A stretch of DNA of 64,000 nt. Source: Candidatus Thorarchaeota archaeon (GTDB taxonomy: Archaea > Asgardarchaeota > Thorarchaeia > Thorarchaeales > Thorarchaeaceae). Position numbers and translations under genes: made by a program. Where the stretch lies: positions 3,518-67,517 of the forward strand of contig JBHIAE010000004.1 in the NCBI GenBank assembly GCA_046758445.1. Reading direction: 5' to 3'. Positions 5,528 through 46,194 of this stretch are shown piece by piece (the stretch's first letter is position 1; each line of letters starts with the position of its first letter). A model generated the notes under the pieces. That model worked only from the letters and a program-made list of their open reading frames with translations. It searched no databases and had not been told where the DNA came from.

Positions 5528-6739
5528 CTATACAAACATTTCAAGTAGCGCATCCACGCGTGTCCGAATCTGGGCCTCGTTGAAGAGTCGACTGTCCACC
5601 ATATCGCCTTCGATGACGACACCAGGCACTCCAGTTCTCTCAGTGACTATCTCTTTGGACACAAGCTGGCCTAAGGAGTATCGCTTGCAGGAGCGCACAG
5701 AGAACATCATGAATCCGTCTAGGTCATACTCCTTGATCAGTTCGCTCATTTTGTCGACCTTTGCTTCAAGGCCCTTATTCAGGTAGACATTAGAATAGAT
5801 CTCGACTGCTCCATCAAGGTACGAATCCGTGTCCGCCCCCTGGATTGCGCCAGACCATGCATGTGTGTAAGTGTCCGCAGGAAATACGACTCCTCGCTCC
5901 GCTAGCCTGTTGAAGAACCGAAGAATGAACCATGGGGGAATGTTGTCCCATAGGAGACGCACCTTCTCTTCACGAATCGCACCGATGCCCTGTTTCACAC
6001 GGTCTTCGACCTCGGCAAGCAGTGCCTCGTAGAACTCAGTGCATTGCTTTAGACCACGACTTGAAACCACGGGTGCCATAGTCAGAAATCGATCTGCGCA
6101 GTTCAGTGGACTTGGTTTGTTCCGACAGGCCTTCAGAGACCCGATCCAGAGGTTTGTAGCCTTGCTTGATAGATCGGCCACCTCCCGAAACTTGTCGTCC
6201 TCAAGTGTTGTGTTGAATGTCTTCCCCAGGAACTCCACCAGACGATCAACGCCTTTACGAACGTAGGCTCTATGATGCGGCTGCTGTTCCTCATCTAGAG
6301 GAGGTGTGTCAAGAAGGAAGACAGGGGCTCCAGTCATCTCTGAGATTGCGTCATACCATTTGAGAACTGTTCCGCAGATGTTGTTACAGGCCAAGAGTGC
6401 TTGGGGAGTGGGGAGTGTCCCCATAGGAACTTCATCGGGTCTGTCGGTTGACCCAATGCTTGCTCGAGCATAAGAGCAGAGCTCCTGAGAGTATCCGAGG
6501 TCCTCAGCATACCCGCATACGTCCGGTCCTATCTTCTGTGCACCAATGATAGCTCCCGCTTGTTCAGGATATGTAGGAAAGACTCCCATTGCAAGCGGAA
6601 TCTCAACGGGGAAGCCTGAGGTCACCCAGGCTAGCTTGCCATCCTCACTCGCCGCTGCTGCCTCAAGTCCATGGCGGAATGCAATCTGCTGCAGCAATGC
6701 TTGGGTTTCCAATCGCCGGTACGGCTTATCTGCTGACAT
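5528..6739 (-). CDS. 2-hydroxyacyl-CoA dehydratase family subunit (HgdB/BcrB-like)
   Basis: Shows family-level similarity (WVTSGFPVEIPLAMGVFPTYPE). The start is set at the ATG at 6739, which is preceded by an AGGAG ribosome-binding site just after the upstream gene's stop. The longer ORF to 6808 would overlap the upstream gene. Confidence 0.7.
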   Translation of the reverse strand: MSADKPYRRLETQALLQQIAFRHGLEAAAASEDGKLAWVTSGFPVEIPLAMGVFPTYPEQAGAIIGAQKIGPDVCGYAEDLGYSQELCSYARASIGSTDRPDEVPMGTLPTPQALLACNNICGTVLKWYDAISEMTGAPVFLLDTPPLDEEQQPHHRAYVRKGVDRLVEFLGKTFNTTLEDDKFREVADLSSKATNLWIGSLKACRNKPSPLNCADRFLTMAPVVSSRGLKQCTEFYEALLAEVEDRVKQGIGAIREEKVRLLWDNIPPWFILRFFNRLAERGVVFPADTYTHAWSGAIQGADTDSYLDGAVEIYSNVYLNKGLEAKVDKMSELIKEYDLDGFMMFSVRSCKRYSLGQLVSKEIVTERTGVPGVVIEGDMVDSRLFNEAQIRTRVDALLEMFV

Positions 6740-6752
6740 TACTCTTACTCCT

Positions 6753-8102
6753 TCATTTGCTCTCGAGCGTTTCAATAAATGTCTGTATGCGACCCTCAAG
6801 TCTAGCACGATCTGACAATTCTGGGTCGATAGGTAGCTTCACAGTTGCGACACCCACTTCCTTAGCTGCTCTTTCAAGTGAGGGGGCCTCAAACTCATCT
6901 GGATCGCAGAATGACTGCTCACATATGATCAGTCCATGAATCGATAGCTTGGTCAAGATTGCCCTTAGAAAGGCTGTGCGTTCTGGAAGACCTTCCTGCG
7001 TTGGCTCACCCGGAGCTCCAAGTATTGAACGTGCCGCATTGTCAAACGGGTCGCCCCGCGTACTGACTGGTGGTGCGAAGACTGTCTTGAAGCCAAATGA
7101 GAGCAAGTCAAGTACAAGCGCCGAATCGGTGAATCCCTGAACACCGTTGACAAGTCCGGCAATTGTGCTTGGCTCAATCATTCCTCCGATGACAGCGATT
7201 CTTGGGCGAGTGTCCTCGAATTGTACCGTTAGACCTTCAAGATTCTGGCTGAGAAGTGCGTTCTTGAGCTTCTCTGGAGCACCCGAAAGTCCCTCCTCAA
7301 TGCTCGCAGATGCGGCGGCCAGTTCCCTTTCAATCCTATCTAACCCAGTATTGGTCGGGGAGGTCAAGAGATCGCCAACGAGCTCATACAGAGTATCACG
7401 AGAAACAAGGCTGGGTTGGATGAGTCTTGTTGCATAGAGTAATTGAAGACCATCTCTGATTCTCCGAATCAGAGTGGCTGCATCTTTGAAGGCGTCCTCG
7501 GAGAACGTGGTGCCATAGTTGGCTGAAAGCGTCCTGGATAGAGTCCTAATCTCTTCCGCAAGGAACTGAACAGCGGACTCCTTTGGCTTTCCTGCAGGGT
7601 ACGTAAGCCGAAACACACTATCCCCAGGAAACCGTAATCGCCAGACATCTCCAACATTCTGCAGAGCATCACAGGTATTCCCCGGGAATACAATCCCTGC
7701 CAGCTGAGGTAGACTATCATTGACCCTCTGGCTGAAGAGGTTTCGAGTGAGCGCGCAAGAGAATGTCTGAAGACTTGCCTCGTATGCACCAACGATTGAT
7801 GGACTCGTACGGACAAGTGAGGGCGTCAGTCCATGTGCCAACACAATCTCCAGAGGGAAGTGAGGATATATGTAGCCGAGGACTCGCTCTCCAGCGTCTA
7901 CAAGCTCTCTGAGCACCTGATTGGATTGTTCAATTACCTGTGGATAGCTCAAGCAGACACCCCTCAACTCTCTTTGTTGAGGACGAACGAATAGTATCGA
8001 ATCTCTCTCGTTCGCTTTCTTATTTGTTGTGCTGGAAGCACGCATAGCATGAGTATGGTGAAAGTGGGCATCTTGAAGCCAAGTTGAGCAAGAATCGAGC
8101 AA
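6753..8102 (-). CDS. 2-hydroxyacyl-CoA dehydratase family subunit (HgdA/BcrC-like)
   Basis: Contains YIYPHFPLEIVLAHGLTP, typical of the HgdA/BadD family. It is the first gene of the minus-strand hgdA-hgdB-hgdC order. The start could instead be an internal Met. Confidence 0.7.
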   Translation of the reverse strand: MLDSCSTWLQDAHFHHTHAMRASSTTNKKANERDSILFVRPQQRELRGVCLSYPQVIEQSNQVLRELVDAGERVLGYIYPHFPLEIVLAHGLTPSLVRTSPSIVGAYEASLQTFSCALTRNLFSQRVNDSLPQLAGIVFPGNTCDALQNVGDVWRLRFPGDSVFRLTYPAGKPKESAVQFLAEEIRTLSRTLSANYGTTFSEDAFKDAATLIRRIRDGLQLLYATRLIQPSLVSRDTLYELVGDLLTSPTNTGLDRIERELAAASASIEEGLSGAPEKLKNALLSQNLEGLTVQFEDTRPRIAVIGGMIEPSTIAGLVNGVQGFTDSALVLDLLSFGFKTVFAPPVSTRGDPFDNAARSILGAPGEPTQEGLPERTAFLRAILTKLSIHGLIICEQSFCDPDEFEAPSLERAAKEVGVATVKLPIDPELSDRARLEGRIQTFIETLESK

Positions 8103-14625: not shown

Positions 14626-15579
14626 TTATCCTGATCTCTCAACTGGCACAAACCACTCCTCCAGGGAGATCTGTGACTGGGTGTCCACAATGCTCTCATT
14701 TGCGTAAAGTCGGCGAAGGAATTGATTGTAGCCTTCGACGCTCTCTGTACGGACAGTGGCAAACAGATTGTATTCCTCGCTTGTACGATGTAGATCCCAT
14801 ACCTCCTCCATCTCGCTGATTCTTAGTGCAGTTGGAGAAATGGTGCCGTGTCTTGACTTGATTTGGAGGAAGAACTTGATTGGGAGCCCGATATGCCTGA
14901 ACTGAATGTCTACGGAGTAGCCTGCGATTGCACCTCGGCTCTTGAGCCTTCTCATGGCTTTTGATACTGCTGGCTGACTGAGGGTCGGAGTCATCCGCTT
15001 TCCAACCTCGCTCTGGGCAAGAGGGAATGGATTGTCCTCATTCGGAGCATACCTATAGAGTGTCTTCATCAGCTCCCAGTCCTTGGCCGACACTGGTTCT
15101 GGACGGGCCTTCTCTCTCTTCAGGATGAACCCGTGCGTCTTGTACGTCGTCAGCACCTGCACAAGCTGATACTTCTCGGCTCCTGACTTTGCCACAACCC
15201 CGTCAACGTCATCAAGGAAATCTTCGAACTGGCCCTCCCCACGAAACCGGAAAAGTCCAAGGAGAGAGTGTTCTCCCGAGATTCCGTCCAAGGATTCAAG
15301 CTCCGGTATCTGCAGAAGCCCTCTACTCACCGCAAGCTCTCTAGGATTGGTCTTAATGAGTAGCATTGTACTCTTCTCAGGGAAGACCCGAGCAGGATCA
15401 AATACAGTCACGTACGCTTGAATGACCTCGTTTTGAACTAGCCGTCGAATGGCACGAGCGACCCAGTTGCGGCCTTTCCCTAATTGCTCAGCAAGACTGG
15501 CAAGACTCTCTCTAGAATCACGAAGCAGCCTTTTCAGAAGCTTCTGCTCGCTCTCTGTAATGGATTGCACGGCATGCAC
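14626..15579 (-). CDS. Lrp/AsnC-family transcriptional regulator with duplicated HTH+RAM modules
   Basis: There are two HTH-like segments (LASLAEQLGKGRNWVARAIRRL and LSQPAVSKAMRRLKSRGAI), each followed by a RAM-like beta-alpha-beta region. At 317 aa it is roughly twice the size of a single Lrp. Confidence 0.65.
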   Translation of the reverse strand: MHAVQSITESEQKLLKRLLRDSRESLASLAEQLGKGRNWVARAIRRLVQNEVIQAYVTVFDPARVFPEKSTMLLIKTNPRELAVSRGLLQIPELESLDGISGEHSLLGLFRFRGEGQFEDFLDDVDGVVAKSGAEKYQLVQVLTTYKTHGFILKREKARPEPVSAKDWELMKTLYRYAPNEDNPFPLAQSEVGKRMTPTLSQPAVSKAMRRLKSRGAIAGYSVDIQFRHIGLPIKFFLQIKSRHGTISPTALRISEMEEVWDLHRTSEEYNLFATVRTESVEGYNQFLRRLYANESIVDTQSQISLEEWFVPVERSG

Positions 15580-15650: not shown

Positions 15651-16733
15651 GTGATGACAATGGCCGATTACAAGGTAAAGGACATTGGGCTTGCCGAAGA
15701 AGGCAGGATGCTAATCGACTATGCGGAGAAACACATGCCTGTGCTTATACATCTCAGGAAGAAGTACTCCAAGACAAAGCCACTCAAGGGTATGAAGATT
15801 GCTGGCTGTCTCCATGTGACAAAGGAAACAGCTGTACTCGTGGAAACTCTTCGAGAGGTCGGAGCTGAAGTGGCCTGGTCTGGCTGCAATCCACTGTCGA
15901 CGAACGACAAAGTGGCTGCAGGACTTGCCGCCAATGATGTTCCGGTGTATGCCTGGCACAATCTGAACACCGAGGAATACTACTGGTGCATTGAACAGAC
16001 CCTCAAGACTGAGCCAACGTTGACGCTTGATGACGGAGCGGATCTGATTTTTACGTTACACAACAAGCACCAAGAGTTGATACCCAATCTCTATGGAGGT
16101 TCTGAAGAAACCACAACTGGGGTGATTCGTGTCCGAGCAATGGCTGAAGATAGTGCCCTGAAGTACCCAATCATGGCCGTCAATGATGCAGACACCAAAC
16201 ACTTGTTCGACAACGTATACGGTACCGGACAGAGCGTTTTCGATGGTGTAATGAGAGCTTCTGCGATTCTGATTGCTGGTAAGACCGTAGTCATCGGTGG
16301 CTACGGGTTCTGTGGTCGCGGAATGGCGGAGCGTGCAAGAGGACTGGGTGCAAATGTGATTGTCACTGAAGTTGATCCAATTCGCGGACTACAGGCTCGA
16401 ATGGATGGTTTCAGGGTTATGCCTATGAATGATGCTGCACGTGAAGGCGACCTGTTTCTGACTGCCACTGGTATGAAGGACATCATCACTGGTACTCATA
16501 TCAAAGAGATGAAGGATGGAGCAATTCTGGGAAATGCTGGACATTACAATGTTGAGATCAATGAGCCAGACCTTGCCAAGCTTAGCACTGGGAAGAGAAG
16601 GGTTCGACCTTCTTTGGATGAGTATACATTGAAGGATGGCAGAATTGTGTACCTTCTCGGAGAAGGTAGGCTTGTCAATCTGGTCGCTGCGGAAGGTCAC
16701 CCCAGTGTCAGAAGAGCATTCGCTGCTCTCTAG
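15651..16733 (+). CDS. ahcY: S-adenosyl-L-homocysteine hydrolase, N-terminal ~360 aa (interrupted gene)
   Basis: Contains YKVKDIGLAEEGR, the NAD-binding GYGFCGRG motif and RLVNLVAAEGHPS. The frame then terminates prematurely (VRRAFAAL*) relative to canonical SAHH. Confidence 0.85.
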   Translation: MMTMADYKVKDIGLAEEGRMLIDYAEKHMPVLIHLRKKYSKTKPLKGMKIAGCLHVTKETAVLVETLREVGAEVAWSGCNPLSTNDKVAAGLAANDVPVYAWHNLNTEEYYWCIEQTLKTEPTLTLDDGADLIFTLHNKHQELIPNLYGGSEETTTGVIRVRAMAEDSALKYPIMAVNDADTKHLFDNVYGTGQSVFDGVMRASAILIAGKTVVIGGYGFCGRGMAERARGLGANVIVTEVDPIRGLQARMDGFRVMPMNDAAREGDLFLTATGMKDIITGTHIKEMKDGAILGNAGHYNVEINEPDLAKLSTGKRRVRPSLDEYTLKDGRIVYLLGEGRLVNLVAAEGHPSVRRAFAAL

Positions 16734-16741
16734 ATGGAAAG

Positions 16742-16948
16742 GTGATGGACCTCAGCTTTGCAGGCCAGCTGAATGCAATGATCTGGTTGACCAAGCATGG
16801 GAAGGACCTCAAACCAGCCGTGTATGAGTTTCCGAAGGAACTTGATCAGCAGACTGCCTTGGCAAAACTAGAAACCATGGGTATAAAGATAGACAAATGG
16901 ACCCCAGAGCAGGAGGCCTACGCAAAGGCTTACGCCGAGGGAACCTAG
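16742..16948 (+). CDS. ahcY: S-adenosyl-L-homocysteine hydrolase C-terminal fragment, in a different frame
   Basis: VMDLSFAGQLNAMIWL...AVYEFPKELDQQTALAKLETMGIKIDKWTPEQEAY aligns with the canonical SAHH C-terminus VMSNSFTNQVLAQIELW...LPKKLDE...LGVKLTKLT.EQAEY. Confidence 0.6.
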   Translation: MMDLSFAGQLNAMIWLTKHGKDLKPAVYEFPKELDQQTALAKLETMGIKIDKWTPEQEAYAKAYAEGT

Positions 16949-16958
16949 TCAAAGAGTA

Positions 16959-16996
16959 GAAGAGGCAGACAACTATGCCTCTTCACCTCTTTTTTT
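16959..16996. terminator. hairpin plus T-tract between convergent genes, possibly a bidirectional terminator
   Basis: A perfect 9-bp stem (gaagaggca / tgcctcttc) with an 8-nt loop is followed by ttttttt. It sits between the end of ahcY (+) and the end of the LAGLIDADG-like ORF (-). Confidence 0.4.
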
Positions 16997-18853
16997 CTAC
17001 CCAGAATCTTCAGCTTCCAATTCAGGCGATTTAGTCAATTCCAGCCACTTTTGCGTTTGCTCAATCTTATTTCGGGCTTCCTTCACTCTACGGGGATGAG
17101 CCTTCATCCACTTCTCCAGTATTCTTCGCTTTCTCTTGTCGTTGGGAGGTGCTTGAATCCCCCACATAGCAACATCCTCTTGACTACTAGTTGCCGTAGT
17201 CCATTTCACTGAAACTCGACCTGTCTGCTCAGAGTAGCTGATGTATGAAGGGTCCTGTTCCTTAGTCATAATACCATTGGCCAAACAGAGTTGTTTCTCG
17301 TCCTCAACAAAGCCTGAGGGATTGGTACGAACAATATAGTCCAACTCTTTCGCAGCCTTAGCGTCTGCTGAGTCCTCAGATTCCATCAAGCTCTCTAGCA
17401 TGGTAATAGACAACTCACGAAATCGGCCCTCAACAGCGTCCCTTCCGTATCTACGCTCAGTAGGTTTCCCATGCTTCTTAATGAAGTCAACTTGACTACC
17501 TGTCAGTCTTGACACGAATCTGTATTTGTCAGCCTTCAAAGGATCATGAAGAACTACAGAACGACTCCAAGTGATTCTTGCATAGTCCTTTGCATCCACT
17601 GCGACTGAGCCTTCTTCAGGAACTAGCTCACAAAGATACGCTAACTGAACCCGAGAAGAGCCATATTTAATCCAATCCGGTAGTCGGACTCCTTGCAGAA
17701 CCTTGTCCCCGACGGTCATTCCTAGTCTGGCCAAAAGACGCCCAATGATATTCGGAACGTGAAAACCACCCTCCGACTTGTTTCTGTTGCGTATAATTGG
17801 AGTTGCAACTTCTCCAATTCGCTGCAGCATCGATCTCACAATGGTGCGGCGAGTGGCATCGTTTTCATAGTAGAATATACGGTGACCAGATTCGATGCTC
17901 CCATCGGAAGCAACGATTGCAAAAAGCCTCGCCATCAATGTGATGAAATCCACTTCTATGAGGAACTTTGGTCTGACAATCTGCCTCCCTTGACCCAATC
18001 GAGTTATTCCAGACTCGACGTCTTTGAGCGACTTCCCTTGTGCGTCCATCAGCAGCTGAAGCGTTCTTCCTCGCAAATGAGCTGAGTTCGGAGTGAAATC
18101 GGAGATGATTCGCCCTTCTCGACCTGTTACCTTCTCTTGATAGTCAGCTAGCTGTCTTACGACGTTGCTGAGGTCATAATCCCCATTGAGGCCAAGAAAG
18201 TTACGTCCTTCGCGAGTAATTGGCTTTCTCTCTCTCTTGCCGAAGAAGAAGAGCTCATCCGCGAACAGGTTGAGATAGTTGAATTTGCGAGTGTCTTTGC
18301 GCCAAAAGTAGAGAAGCGATCCCACGACGGCTATCCGCATCTCCTCATCAGGGTTTACATCCAGCCCAAGATTCTTGTTCAGTTTCTCTTCTATCTGCTT
18401 ACGATTTGCTTGTATCGACTTTCGTACATCTAGCAGCCATCTTGGACCATGATTGTAGTTGTAGGGTTTCAAGTGAGCGAAGGCAACTCGTTGAATAGGA
18501 GTTCTGGCAAGAAGATGCTCTAGAGCCCTGGCCATCCTTCCCACACTGTGCCGTTTTCGGTTTCTAATTGAACGAAGAGCACGAAAGACTGTTGAGGAAT
18601 CGATAAGATTCTCGAGTGCTCTAGTTGGTTGTTTCGATTCTAGCTTCCTTCTCATGACCTCATTCTCGACCACTTGGTTGATCAATTCTGGAGTCCTTCT
18701 TCCTGAAACCCACGTCCTAGCAGTACCGAATGGCACGTCCTGAGCCATACGAGCCACTGCCGAATGAGAGAGCTCCGAGTCCTCTCTTCTAATACGCATG
18801 AGCCGAAAGTATTCCTTGACTGCATTCAACATCTTGGCGAACATCTTGGCCAA
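16997..18853 (-). CDS. large protein with two LAGLIDADG-like endonuclease motifs (homing-endonuclease-like core with long N- and C-terminal extensions)
   Basis: Motif 1 is LMARLFAIVASDGSIE. About 95 aa later, motif 2 is VQLAYLCELVPEEGSVAV, with a GGFHVPNIIGRLLARLG stretch between them. This spacing is typical of monomeric double-motif LAGLIDADG enzymes. There are no Hint/intein termini. Confidence 0.55.
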   Translation of the reverse strand: MAKMFAKMLNAVKEYFRLMRIRREDSELSHSAVARMAQDVPFGTARTWVSGRRTPELINQVVENEVMRRKLESKQPTRALENLIDSSTVFRALRSIRNRKRHSVGRMARALEHLLARTPIQRVAFAHLKPYNYNHGPRWLLDVRKSIQANRKQIEEKLNKNLGLDVNPDEEMRIAVVGSLLYFWRKDTRKFNYLNLFADELFFFGKRERKPITREGRNFLGLNGDYDLSNVVRQLADYQEKVTGREGRIISDFTPNSAHLRGRTLQLLMDAQGKSLKDVESGITRLGQGRQIVRPKFLIEVDFITLMARLFAIVASDGSIESGHRIFYYENDATRRTIVRSMLQRIGEVATPIIRNRNKSEGGFHVPNIIGRLLARLGMTVGDKVLQGVRLPDWIKYGSSRVQLAYLCELVPEEGSVAVDAKDYARITWSRSVVLHDPLKADKYRFVSRLTGSQVDFIKKHGKPTERRYGRDAVEGRFRELSITMLESLMESEDSADAKAAKELDYIVRTNPSGFVEDEKQLCLANGIMTKEQDPSYISYSEQTGRVSVKWTTATSSQEDVAMWGIQAPPNDKRKRRILEKWMKAHPRRVKEARNKIEQTQKWLELTKSPELEAEDSG

Positions 18854-18940
18854 CTAGCTAACTACATAGGGACCAACTCAGGAAGAGAAGTGGACAAGTC
18901 TGCATTGTTCAAGATATTCTATGGTGAAACAGAGGCTCCA

Positions 18941-19198
18941 ATGATTGAGGAGTGTATTCTCAACATGGAACTTGAGGTGAAGGAGATAATCGAGTTTCCA
19001 GATCACTTCATGGTTCTTGGAGATGCCGTGACATCTTATGTTGATGAAGAGAATATGACCGATAACAAACCAGACATGAAGAAGATGAATCCTGTCATAT
19101 ACACCGGAGCTGAAAAACGACCGACATATTGGGCACTGGGTGAAAAGCTTGGAGATGCGTTTCGAATAGCGAAGGACTTCAGGAAACTCAAGTCATAG
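18941..19198 (+). CDS. hypothetical small protein
   Basis: An ORF from the internal ATG at 18941 (MIEECILNMELEV...), which avoids overlap with the neighbouring gene start. No homology was recognised. Confidence 0.25.
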   Translation: MIEECILNMELEVKEIIEFPDHFMVLGDAVTSYVDEENMTDNKPDMKKMNPVIYTGAEKRPTYWALGEKLGDAFRIAKDFRKLKS

Positions 19199-44948: not shown

Positions 44949-45229
44949 GTCGCGTGAGGTAACGTCGCTTCTTATAGCACCTGTGCTCCTGCGGCTTCAA
45001 AGGCCTCTGCTACCGAGATGGTCCATCATTCTTCCGCTGGATCTGTGTTCTTTCGCCACTGAGCTCTTCCTAAACTGGAAGGTGTCGAACTATGCTCTGT
45101 CGGCGTACTGTTGCGGCTGTTCCTGAACCGATGGAATACCTTGAGTAGATAATCGATCTTCGTGTCTCATATGAATGACGTTGAAGCCTTGCTTCAATGA
45201 ACAGGACGTCATCATTGTGAAAGGATTAG

Positions 45230-45990
45230 TGAGCAAGAGACTTGGTACCGTGACACCTCAGTTCGGAGTTGTCTTTCTACTGCTACTTCTGTCATTCGCC
45301 GCAGAACCCTGCAATGCGCAGAGGTGTGGTCGGACAACTTCGATGACGGTAATCACGATGGTTGGACAGCAAGTAGCTGCTCGGTCACTGCGGGTACTTT
45401 GCGAACAACGAGTGCCTCTGGATCTGCGTACCATGAGAGCACAGTCGCCGATGGCACATGGAGTTTTGATCTGGAGCACACAAACTTGGCAGTAGGGGTA
45501 TAGATTGGGGATGGCACGGTTACATTCTCCCAACGGTCTTCTTTGTGAGTACGCACCCTGAGGAAACGCCTTGGTACTTCTACTGTGTTGTCGCCACTCA
45601 AGCATCAACGCAGACAGGATACAAGCCCGTTTTAGAGGCCCGCAAGAATGCTCCCGATGGAGCCGGAGCGTTCTACACTTGGGCCAAGATTGCCAGCTAT
45701 GATGGTGAGGACGGTGACTTTGGTTGGAAACATGTCGACATAGCTCGAACGATAGGTGGGCAGATAACTGTCTGGATTAACGGCACTCTTGTCATTCAGG
45801 TGGTAGACACGGACATTGACACGTCGGAGTACTTCGTGTTCATGGCAGGAAATGATAGGGGGCATAGACAACGTGGTTGTGGACAACGTGCCAATTGCAG
45901 CTGGAGTGCCTCTGGAGCTACTGGCGCTTGGAATCTGCGTGCCGGTCGTCATTGCCGGGACCGTAGTCTGGACTCGTAGAAGAGGTGCAT
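45230..45990 (+). pseudogene. secreted concanavalin-A-like/DUF1080-like lectin-glucanase domain protein split across three frames
   Basis: Hand translation shows three segments in three frames: a signal peptide (VVFLLLLLSFAAEPCNAQ), then VWSDNFDDGNHDGWT...ADGTWSFDLEH, then ...GQITVWINGTLVIQVVDTD...FVFMAGNDRGH. A C-terminal TM (VPLELLALGICVPVVIAGTVVWTRRR) follows, also frame-shifted. One junction sits at a ggggg run (~45858). Confidence 0.3.
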
Positions 45991-46194
45991 AGAACAGGTC
46001 ATTTTCTGGCCTGGAGCAACAATCCACTACCACAGACTGCGGCAACTTGACACTATGTTGTTGTAACTCCCTAGCAATGCCCGGTCCTCAATCTACTACT
46101 GAGTCCTCACGACTTATATACACAACTACAGATAGGTTGCGGCACAACTTCGCGAAGAATACGCTTTTGCGGGTTGACACAGGAGGTTAACTTC

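Follow-up and report, generated by a model that had tools for sequence, protein, structure and literature searches.

The adenosylhomocysteinase (S-adenosylhomocysteine hydrolase) gene ahcY of a Candidatus Thorarchaeota archaeon is interrupted by 32 nucleotides (nt) that are, with a probability we put at roughly 85%, an archaeal bulge-helix-bulge (BHB) intron within the coding sequence. The insert occupies positions 16708–16739 of the window, by which we mean the whole stretch of DNA analyzed: 64,000 nt of a metagenome-assembled genome (GCA_046758445.1, contig JBHIAE010000004.1, positions 3,518–67,517). The three parts of the gene are listed here with the evidence that delimits them.

15660–16707, + strand: ahcY exon 1, with alternative starts at ATG 15654 and GTG 15651; its last base is the G of the junction codon
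16708–16739, + strand: putative 32-nt intron UCAGAAGAGCAUUCGCUGCUCUCUAGAUGGAA, delimited by in-frame restoration, the bulge cleavage rule, and homologous inserts of 28–59 nt in 25 other loci
16740–16948, + strand: ahcY exon 2, opening with the AG of the junction codon GAG and ending with the stop TAG 16946–16948; Pfam and the ratio of nonsynonymous to synonymous substitution rates (dN/dS)

As written, the gene forms two open reading frames (ORFs) in the ORF list and its translations. The first (15651–16733, + strand, 360 amino acids [aa]) ends in RLVNLVAAEGHPS-VRRAFAAL followed by TAG, and the second (16742–16948, + strand, 68 aa) lies in another frame and begins with (V)MDLSFAGQLNAMIWL. Pfam assigns AdoHcyase and AdoHcyase_NAD to the first and the C-terminal part of the AdoHcyase profile (positions 226–291 of 299) to the second. 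The Ser codon before the break ends at 16706 and the Val codon after it starts at 16742, leaving 35 nt (16707–16741), of which three make up the one codon required at this place and 32 the net insert. Deletion of 16708–16739 yields one continuous 418-aa protein with the motif GHPSEVMD, as in uninterrupted relatives, and the predicted peptide across the spliced junction reads AAEGHPSEVMDLSFAGQLNAMIWLTK. The joined protein shares 94% identity with the best uninterrupted protein in the database, and the strong matches in the protein search were all Thorarchaeota (Asgard) adenosylhomocysteinases of 418–421 aa.

A preliminary description of this DNA had already reported that ahcY breaks off and resumes 35 nt later in another frame, giving ORFs of 360 and 68 aa, through a discrete insertion rather than a single-base indel; ORFs, translations, and Pfam bear this out, and the same codon is interrupted in relatives. 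Some details need revision. It gave Phe as the continuing residue, where relatives have Glu, sometimes Ser, between GHPS and VMD, and it started the ORF at GTG 15651, where ATG 15654 or 15660 is more likely. Of the stop codons it placed in the insert, TAG (16731–16733) does lie inside, in the exon-1 frame, and TGA (16743–16745) falls just 3′ of it, within GTGATG.

The interruption recurs across Thorarchaeota. A scan of one genome per species, from which the 80 best loci (down to 57% identity) were kept, found 68 Thorarchaeota ahcY loci. About 66 of these span the site, and 10 (L055–L061 and L064–L066) carry extra DNA at exactly the same codon. A DNA pattern for the interrupted site matched those 10 loci and none of the other 70 that were kept; applied to a metagenome collection, it returned 19 stretches, 15 of them genuine ahcY loci and four chance matches. 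In total, 25 other contigs are interrupted at this site, from different projects and assemblers and with related but distinct sequences. Because the number of pattern matches expected in shuffled windows is 0.00 and the interruption recurs in 25 contigs, it is not due to chance. The family comprises 17 distinct intron sequences with insert lengths of 28, 31, 32, 33, 50, 57, and 59 nt. Only 33 and 57 are divisible by three, and every insert, these two included, contains an in-frame stop.

Protein databases hold further examples under the guise of short enzymes. The protein search returned at least 12 distinct clusters of “adenosylhomocysteinase” of about 353–388 aa that end a few residues past GHPS, with tails such as EKLAFVAAS, VYAAFAAA, and VKSAFVAAA. 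At least eight truncated proteins of about 358 aa map to no fetched locus; these clusters come from lineages outside the fetched loci, which means that the intron extends beyond the 25 loci analyzed. The truncated records P0107–P0120 and P0076 (NCBI, JGI, Logan) are annotated as adenosylhomocysteinase, with lengths of 353–388 aa.

This recurrence bears directly on two of the three explanations that the preliminary description had offered. An assembly or sequencing artefact would suit a metagenome-assembled source, and homopolymer frameshifts do occur elsewhere in the window, but 25 other, independent contigs show the interruption at this very site and one truncated protein (P0076) is recorded identically from three contigs, which leaves an artefact with a negligible probability. 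A recent insertion that killed ahcY and left a pseudogene is also extremely improbable. The stop does break the ORF, and another gene in the window (45175–45992) does carry simple frameshifts, but the interruption persists among lineages that are 81–91% identical in the ahcY protein, and among these dN/dS is 0.067 for exon 2, much like the 0.081 measured at the end of exon 1. Such a low value points to strong purifying selection on exon 2 and means that the downstream piece is translated in its own frame within a constrained protein. Nor was a second ahcY locus from any of the 10 intron-bearing assemblies found among the 80 best loci (down to 57% identity).

The DNA around the insert encodes an RNA whose layout is a BHB, the motif recognized by the archaeal splicing endonuclease: a 4-base-pair (bp) helix with a 3-nt bulge at each end, one per strand. 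Its elements in the window are listed below from 5′ to 3′.

16696–16701, + strand: 5′ strand of outer helix h, GUCACC, in exon 1; pairs with 16741–16746 in minimum free energy (MFE) folds
16702–16705, + strand: 5′ strand of central helix H, CCAG, within the Pro and Ser codons; pairs with 16734–16737 by RNAalifold and covariation
16706–16708, + strand: bulge 1, UGU, with the predicted 5′ splice site at 16707/16708, from the geometry and the rule of PMC2738675
16709–16733, + strand: inner helix h′ and hairpin with the conserved core GCAUUCGCUGC; loop UUCGC at 16719–16723 and in-frame TAG at 16731–16733
16734–16737, + strand: 3′ strand of central helix H, AUGG, at the end of the intron; pair counts and RNAalifold
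16738–16740, + strand: bulge 2, AAA, with the predicted 3′ splice site at 16739/16740
16741–16746, + strand: 3′ strand of outer helix h, GGUGAU, in exon 2; MFE folds and pair counts

Introns of the 31-nt class form a textbook BHB (CUAG/CUAG, bulges UGA and AAA), and the 32-nt class to which the window belongs has CCAG/AUGG, that is, 3 bp plus a G·A fourth pair, with bulges UGU and AAA. Folding was run on 18 distinct sequences, and bulge 2 reads AAA or AGA in every one. Left unconstrained, five of them adopt the BHB as their MFE fold; in nine more the BHB lies within about 3 kcal/mol of the MFE, and in four, including L085, it costs 3.4–6.1 kcal/mol. The outer helix comprises 3–6 bp and is codon-limited; 76.7% of its cells are paired, and its three innermost pairs are kept in 13–15 of 15 sequences.

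Compensatory changes support the same structure. Pairs were counted for the BHB in a MAFFT alignment (A1) of 15 distinct short sequences: standard pairs fill 86.7% of cells, compared to 25–49% when the 3′ partners are slid by one to three columns, and changes on both sides are seen in seven pairs (one to five in the slid controls) and 34 cells (3–9 when slid). The observed covariation score was reached by none of 500 shuffles. In the inner helix, 92–95% of cells are paired and six of nine pairs have both-side changes; RNAalifold, run without a supplied structure, predicts both the central and the inner helix. The most telling pair links an exon codon to the intron. The third base of the Pro codon pairs with a base of the intron that lies four positions ahead of the 3′ splice site (columns 12 and 46 of the alignment; C-G in eight sequences, U-A in six, one mismatch), and there is no protein-level link between the two positions. 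An A at this third base never occurs in intron-bearing loci, compared to 19 of 54 intronless ones. Similarly, the Ser codon is AGY, as the helix and bulge require, in all 10 intron-bearing loci gathered without the DNA pattern, whereas intronless loci have 31 AGY and 23 TCN.

The structure also fixes the boundaries. For the pre-mRNA intron of cbf5, cleavage is stated to fall between the second and third residues of each bulge (PMC2738675). Cutting after the second base of each bulge reconstructs GHPS-E(GAG/GAA)-VMD in frame in 18 of 18 complete intron-bearing genes, whatever the insert length; the remaining intron-bearing contigs are cut off but have the same exon-intron boundary pattern. In the window, the rule places the cuts after 16707 and 16739, so that exactly 32 nt are taken out and the codon G|AG (Glu) results. 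Of single rules, only excision from the RNA repairs inserts of every length.

In the mechanism we propose, the intron of the pre-mRNA would fold together with some 10 nt at the end of exon 1 and some 6 nt at the start of exon 2. From the outside inward, the fold would comprise an outer helix, the 4-bp helix flanked by two 3-nt bulges, and an inner hairpin. EndA, the endonuclease of tRNA splicing, would cut after 16707 and 16739, the second base of each bulge, and the RNA ligase RtcB would join the exons to form the codon G|AG (Glu), with the excised intron freed, probably as a circle. The spliced mRNA would encode the normal 418-aa enzyme with its GHPSEVMD motif; unspliced mRNA would end at TAG 16731, eight codons past the splice site, with a 360-aa product ending in GHPSVRRAFAAL. 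Asgard archaea, including one Thorarchaeota genome, are reported to have an (αβ)2 EndA with an L1 loop that confers a broad substrate range (PMC5829648), a class of enzyme linked to cbf5 pre-mRNA splicing.

Searches for further members returned to ahcY. A covariance model (R1) built from the short introns scores three long introns outside its seed at 41–65 bits and finds no other site in 631 kb of ahcY loci. Run without filters on the window, it hits the ahcY site alone, at 84 bits, the next score being 12.5 bits (E = 0.38), so this intron family is present in no other gene of the window. The hairpin core GCRTTYGNYGC likewise occurs in the window at the ahcY site alone (1.6 occurrences expected by chance), and in 624 kb of related loci nothing convincing was found outside ahcY. 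No Rfam family reached its gathering threshold anywhere in the 64-kb window, and ARAGORN found no tRNA in it, in bacterial mode, which could miss intron-rich archaeal tRNA genes. A home-made scanner combining BHB geometry with ORF rescue gave 351 matches over the whole window and was dropped as non-specific; the extra A in the inner helix made it overlook the true intron.

Several points weigh against an intron here. With its G·A pair and extra A in the inner helix, the window's motif is a relaxed rather than a strict BHB, 1.5 kcal/mol above the MFE fold, and in many relatives the outer helix is down to 3 bp. The metagenome set was gathered by a DNA pattern that itself fixes AGY and parts of the exons, a bias from which the 10 genome-derived loci are free. 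Splicing is deduced from DNA sequence rather than from transcripts, and the part given to EndA and RtcB in this genome is a proposal, backed for EndA by the Asgard literature. An exact look-up, as a stand-in for cDNA, of 10 predicted spliced proteins in a collection of 15 billion proteins found none, a result that is uninformative rather than negative.

Two further readings would leave the gene functional as it stands. In the two-piece enzyme suggested by the preliminary description, the 360-aa N-terminal and 68-aa C-terminal fragments would be translated apart and assemble into an active enzyme. We consider this very unlikely, even though the two-ORF arrangement is conserved across many lineages, purifying selection acts on exon 2, and exon 2 opens at a universally conserved Met (VMD) preceded by the purine-rich GGAAAGG. 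That purine stretch is bulge 2 plus the junction, only 2–3 nt from the ATG, and the break falls within the conserved GHPSEVMD motif, whose Glu would be lost. Apart from A-F-x-A-A, which is fixed by the hairpin loop, the tails of the first fragment vary in sequence and length, but the RNA pairing of those variable tails is kept by compensatory changes. A split gene also leaves unexplained both the covariation of the Pro third base with a base about 30 nt downstream and the AGY-only Ser codon. What is conserved is an RNA structure with compensatory changes, including the pair between exon codon and intron. The preliminary description held that the same two-ORF arrangement in relatives, with conserved start signals, would favor a genuine split gene over decay; the arrangement is there, and we take it as the sign of an RNA intron, an option that description did not list.

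Translational recoding, by a frameshift or by a ribosome hop over the insert as in phage T4 gene 60, is if anything a slimmer prospect. In the window, nothing interrupts the exon-2 frame from 16670 onward, which means that a shift ahead of TAG 16731 could in principle give a fusion protein; a stable hairpin also lies within the gap. Insert lengths, however, take all residues modulo 3, and the in-frame inserts of 33 and 57 nt carry stops, so that a shift in any one direction would not serve for all; nor are there take-off and landing codons that match. Read-through would put about 10 extra, variable residues into a conserved motif, and staggered 3-nt bulges 4 bp apart serve no recoding role.

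The BHB intron is scattered over a neighbor-joining tree of ahcY, and intron-bearing genes are often sister to intronless ones (window/L001, L058/L023, L060/L024, L056/L018, and L083/L031). L066 and L103 are 96.5% identical over 6.6 kb, with the 31-nt intron precisely missing in L103; they also differ by a cluster of substitutions around the site, one being a switch from AGT to TCG in the Ser codon. That the hairpin core (GCAUUCGYUGC) is conserved speaks for a common origin of the introns and, after it, repeated precise loss, transfer by recombination, or both. We also asked whether the intron travels with exon 2, and found no clear signal: the three nearest neighbors of intron-bearing genes are themselves intron-bearing in 48% of cases by exon 2 and 41% by exon 1, against a background of 25%.

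The codons at the site are polymorphic as well. The junction codon (window 16707 plus 16740–16741) is GAR (Glu) in most Thorarchaeota and TCN (Ser, with all three bases changed) in nine scattered species (L001, L005, L031, L033, L045, L049, L051, L052, and L062). The Ser codon before the junction also alternates between AGY and TCN, and the junction-codon polymorphism is as patchy as the intron.

The intron lies at the edge of a variable region. Judging by sequence comparisons, the 3′ approximately 240 nt of ahcY, from about 30 nt before the intron site to the stop, behaves as a module that has been repeatedly replaced in Thorarchaeota. Between the window and L001, its closest relative, identity is 90% in the final 600 nt of exon 1 and 72.5% in exon 2, with mismatch density rising about 30 nt upstream of the intron site. 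The same jump in identity is seen in the intronless pair L025/L030, and identity between L061 and L100 falls from 93% to 82% at the site. Homology between the window and L001 returns only at 18851, inside a flavin-reductase-like gene; the mosaic block (window 16680–18850, L001 2720–3275) holds the intron, exon 2, and a gene that we call p618. The flavin-reductase-like gene of the window (18764–19198, + strand) covers Pfam profile positions 58–138 of 153 and lacks the first approximately 230 nt of the intact 189-aa L001 gene (3048–3617), having the 5′ end of p618 instead.

Several loci contain partial and often decayed extra copies of the ahcY 3′ end, extending from around codon 338/348, 374, or 393 to codon 418, some with stops, at 0.5–2 kb downstream of the intact gene. 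They are listed here in the coordinates of each locus, L055 and L097 being counted together.

L001, 3649–3783: extra ahcY 3′ copy
L007, 6312–6554: extra ahcY 3′ copy
L016, 5314–5520: extra ahcY 3′ copy
L020, 4801–5013: extra ahcY 3′ copy
L065, 3983–4198: extra ahcY 3′ copy
L096, 3–143: extra ahcY 3′ copy
L055, 4981–5058: extra ahcY 3′ copy
L097, 2051–2128: extra ahcY 3′ copy

Most of these copies have their left edge within about 30 nt of the intron site, and the 3′ end of ahcY gives the impression of a hot spot where cassettes insert or gene conversion occurs. The 64-kb window contains no further copy of the ahcY 3′ end. A scan of viral contigs with the ahcY C-terminus returned one unrelated full-length ahcY (48% identity) and no att-like fragments.

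Tail-to-tail with ahcY stands the gene p618.

16997–18853, − strand: p618, free-standing LAGLIDADG homing-endonuclease-like protein of 618 aa, from an AlphaFold2 (AF2) model and fold matches; not part of the intron

The protein has no Pfam match, and one of its homologues has a precomputed match to PF14528, which we take to be a LAGLIDADG-like domain. Only eight homologues were found; those with a named source are all from Thorarchaeota, and they adjoin ahcY wherever the context is visible. Two LAGLIDADG-like motifs, LFAIVASDGSI and LAYLCELVPEEGSV, are invariant among the eight. The AF2 model has a predicted local distance difference test (pLDDT) score of 85, and all 50 PDB fold matches listed are LAGLIDADG-domain proteins, including I-Tsp061I, I-DmoI (archaeal and intron-encoded), intein-associated endonucleases, a LAGLIDADG maturase, and WhiA, with a best E-value of only 4e-4. 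On this model, p618 appears to be homing-endonuclease-like and may be linked to the spread of the intron. A simple association between the two was rejected, as p618 adjoins both intron-bearing and intronless ahcY genes. Among the seven loci with a long p618, an intronless canonical xAAEGHPSE site (GCNGCNGARGGNCAYCCNAGYGARGTNATGGA) never occurs; three of them carry the intron and the other four a variant of the site. Where p618 is absent, about 38 of 73 loci show the canonical site, a comparison that ignores relatedness.

It is conceivable, if on balance doubtful, that the micro-intron is more than a tolerated passenger and forms part of a mobile system in which a homing endonuclease targets the conserved site and the intron is one resistant allele. 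Endonucleases of the p618 type would cut the site coding for GHPSEVMD, and in the repair the 3′ module would be co-converted. By splitting or altering the target, alleles with the BHB intron, as well as the Glu-to-Ser (TCN) variants, would resist cutting. This would amount to collaborative homing in which the intron is an archaeal one spliced by enzymes instead of one that splices itself. Collaborative homing, in which an intron is paired with a free-standing homing endonuclease, occurs in cyanophage psbA and in T-even phages. The resemblance lies in the position of the ahcY intron beside an endonuclease-like gene and in a conserved coding site that is possibly targeted; the phage cases involve self-splicing group I introns, whereas the link in ahcY is circumstantial.

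The closest precedent for the ahcY intron is that in the pre-mRNA of cbf5 (pseudouridine synthase) in Crenarchaeota (Watanabe 2002; Yoshinari 2006; Yokobori 2009, PMC2738675). Both are tiny introns in coding sequence (16–44 bp in cbf5, 28–59 nt in ahcY) with BHB or relaxed BHB borders and predicted cuts between the second and third bulge residues. Their hosts have heterotetrameric EndA of broad specificity (for ahcY hosts, from the literature), their patchy distributions suggest gain and loss, and both are routinely mis-annotated as truncations or frameshifts. The cbf5 gene encodes an RNA-modification enzyme of Crenarchaeota, in contrast to a metabolic enzyme of Asgard archaea (Thorarchaeota), and cbf5 splicing was shown by cDNA and in vitro cleavage, whereas that of ahcY is inferred. 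The ahcY intron also sits in a recombination-prone 3′ module beside a homing-endonuclease-like gene. Because the host gene differs and there is no sequence relationship, it falls outside the cbf5 intron family.

A 2020 study described cbf5 as the sole BHB intron reported in archaeal mRNA up to then, and added a case in the 5′ untranslated region (UTR) of HVO_1309 of Haloferax volcanii (PMC7714728). That mRNA, too, is a substrate of the archaeal splicing endonuclease, but its intron leaves the reading frame uninterrupted and its euryarchaeal host has a homodimeric EndA. In the literature we searched, the coverage of which is incomplete, cbf5 was the only reported archaeal BHB intron in coding sequence, next to the one Haloferax 5′ UTR case (PMC7714728), and nothing tied ahcY/SAHH, Thorarchaeota, or Asgard archaea to a BHB intron in mRNA. 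In some Asgard lineages, introns occur in 92–95% of tRNA genes, often at non-canonical positions (PMC11291895). Archaeal tRNA and rRNA BHB introns share the recognition motif and presumably the enzymes (EndA and RtcB) with ahcY, where, however, an mRNA is the substrate and codons constrain the motif's exon halves. In eukaryotic HAC1/XBP1, a short frame-switching mRNA intron (26 nt in XBP1) is cut out by an endonuclease at stem-loops and the ends are rejoined by a tRNA ligase (RtcB in animals), changing the protein C-terminus. There the endonuclease is IRE1 and the reaction is stress-regulated, and the parallel with ahcY is one of analogy only.

With a second well-populated family, endonuclease-dependent mRNA splicing would be more than a one-gene curiosity: the ahcY family, with its 25 loci, 17 distinct introns, and seven lengths, sits in a central metabolic gene. 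Its hosts are Asgard archaea, the closest known relatives of eukaryotes, in which an RtcB-joined, frame-switching intron would parallel HAC1/XBP1. Public records list the interrupted genes as truncated proteins of about 358 aa, and metabolic reconstructions that count them as broken or partial would be wrong. The exon-intron covariation offers a template for finding more mRNA introns, and the homing-endonuclease-like neighbor and replaceable 3′ module make archaeal intron gain and loss directly testable.

Elsewhere in the window, Pfam searches of ten adjacent or overlapping ORFs found no other split gene with a discrete insert. Divergent from ahcY and upstream of it (14626–15579, − strand) is an Lrp/AsnC-type regulator with two helix-turn-helix-like regions, syntenic in nearly all Thorarchaeota loci (49–93% identity) with or without the intron. 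Adjacent paralogous genes for 2-hydroxyglutaryl-CoA dehydratase D-components (5528–6808 and 6753–8102, both − strand) overlap by 56 nt; as each spans the Pfam profile from end to end, they are not halves of a split gene. The frameshifted gene at 45175–45992 (+ strand), for a secreted membrane-anchored protein with a weak 3keto-disac_hyd (PF06439) match, is spread over four frames by three apparent 1-nt shifts, with a G-rich stretch near 45320 and G runs near 45500 and 45860; unlike the structured ahcY insert, it looks like ordinary decay or homopolymer error.

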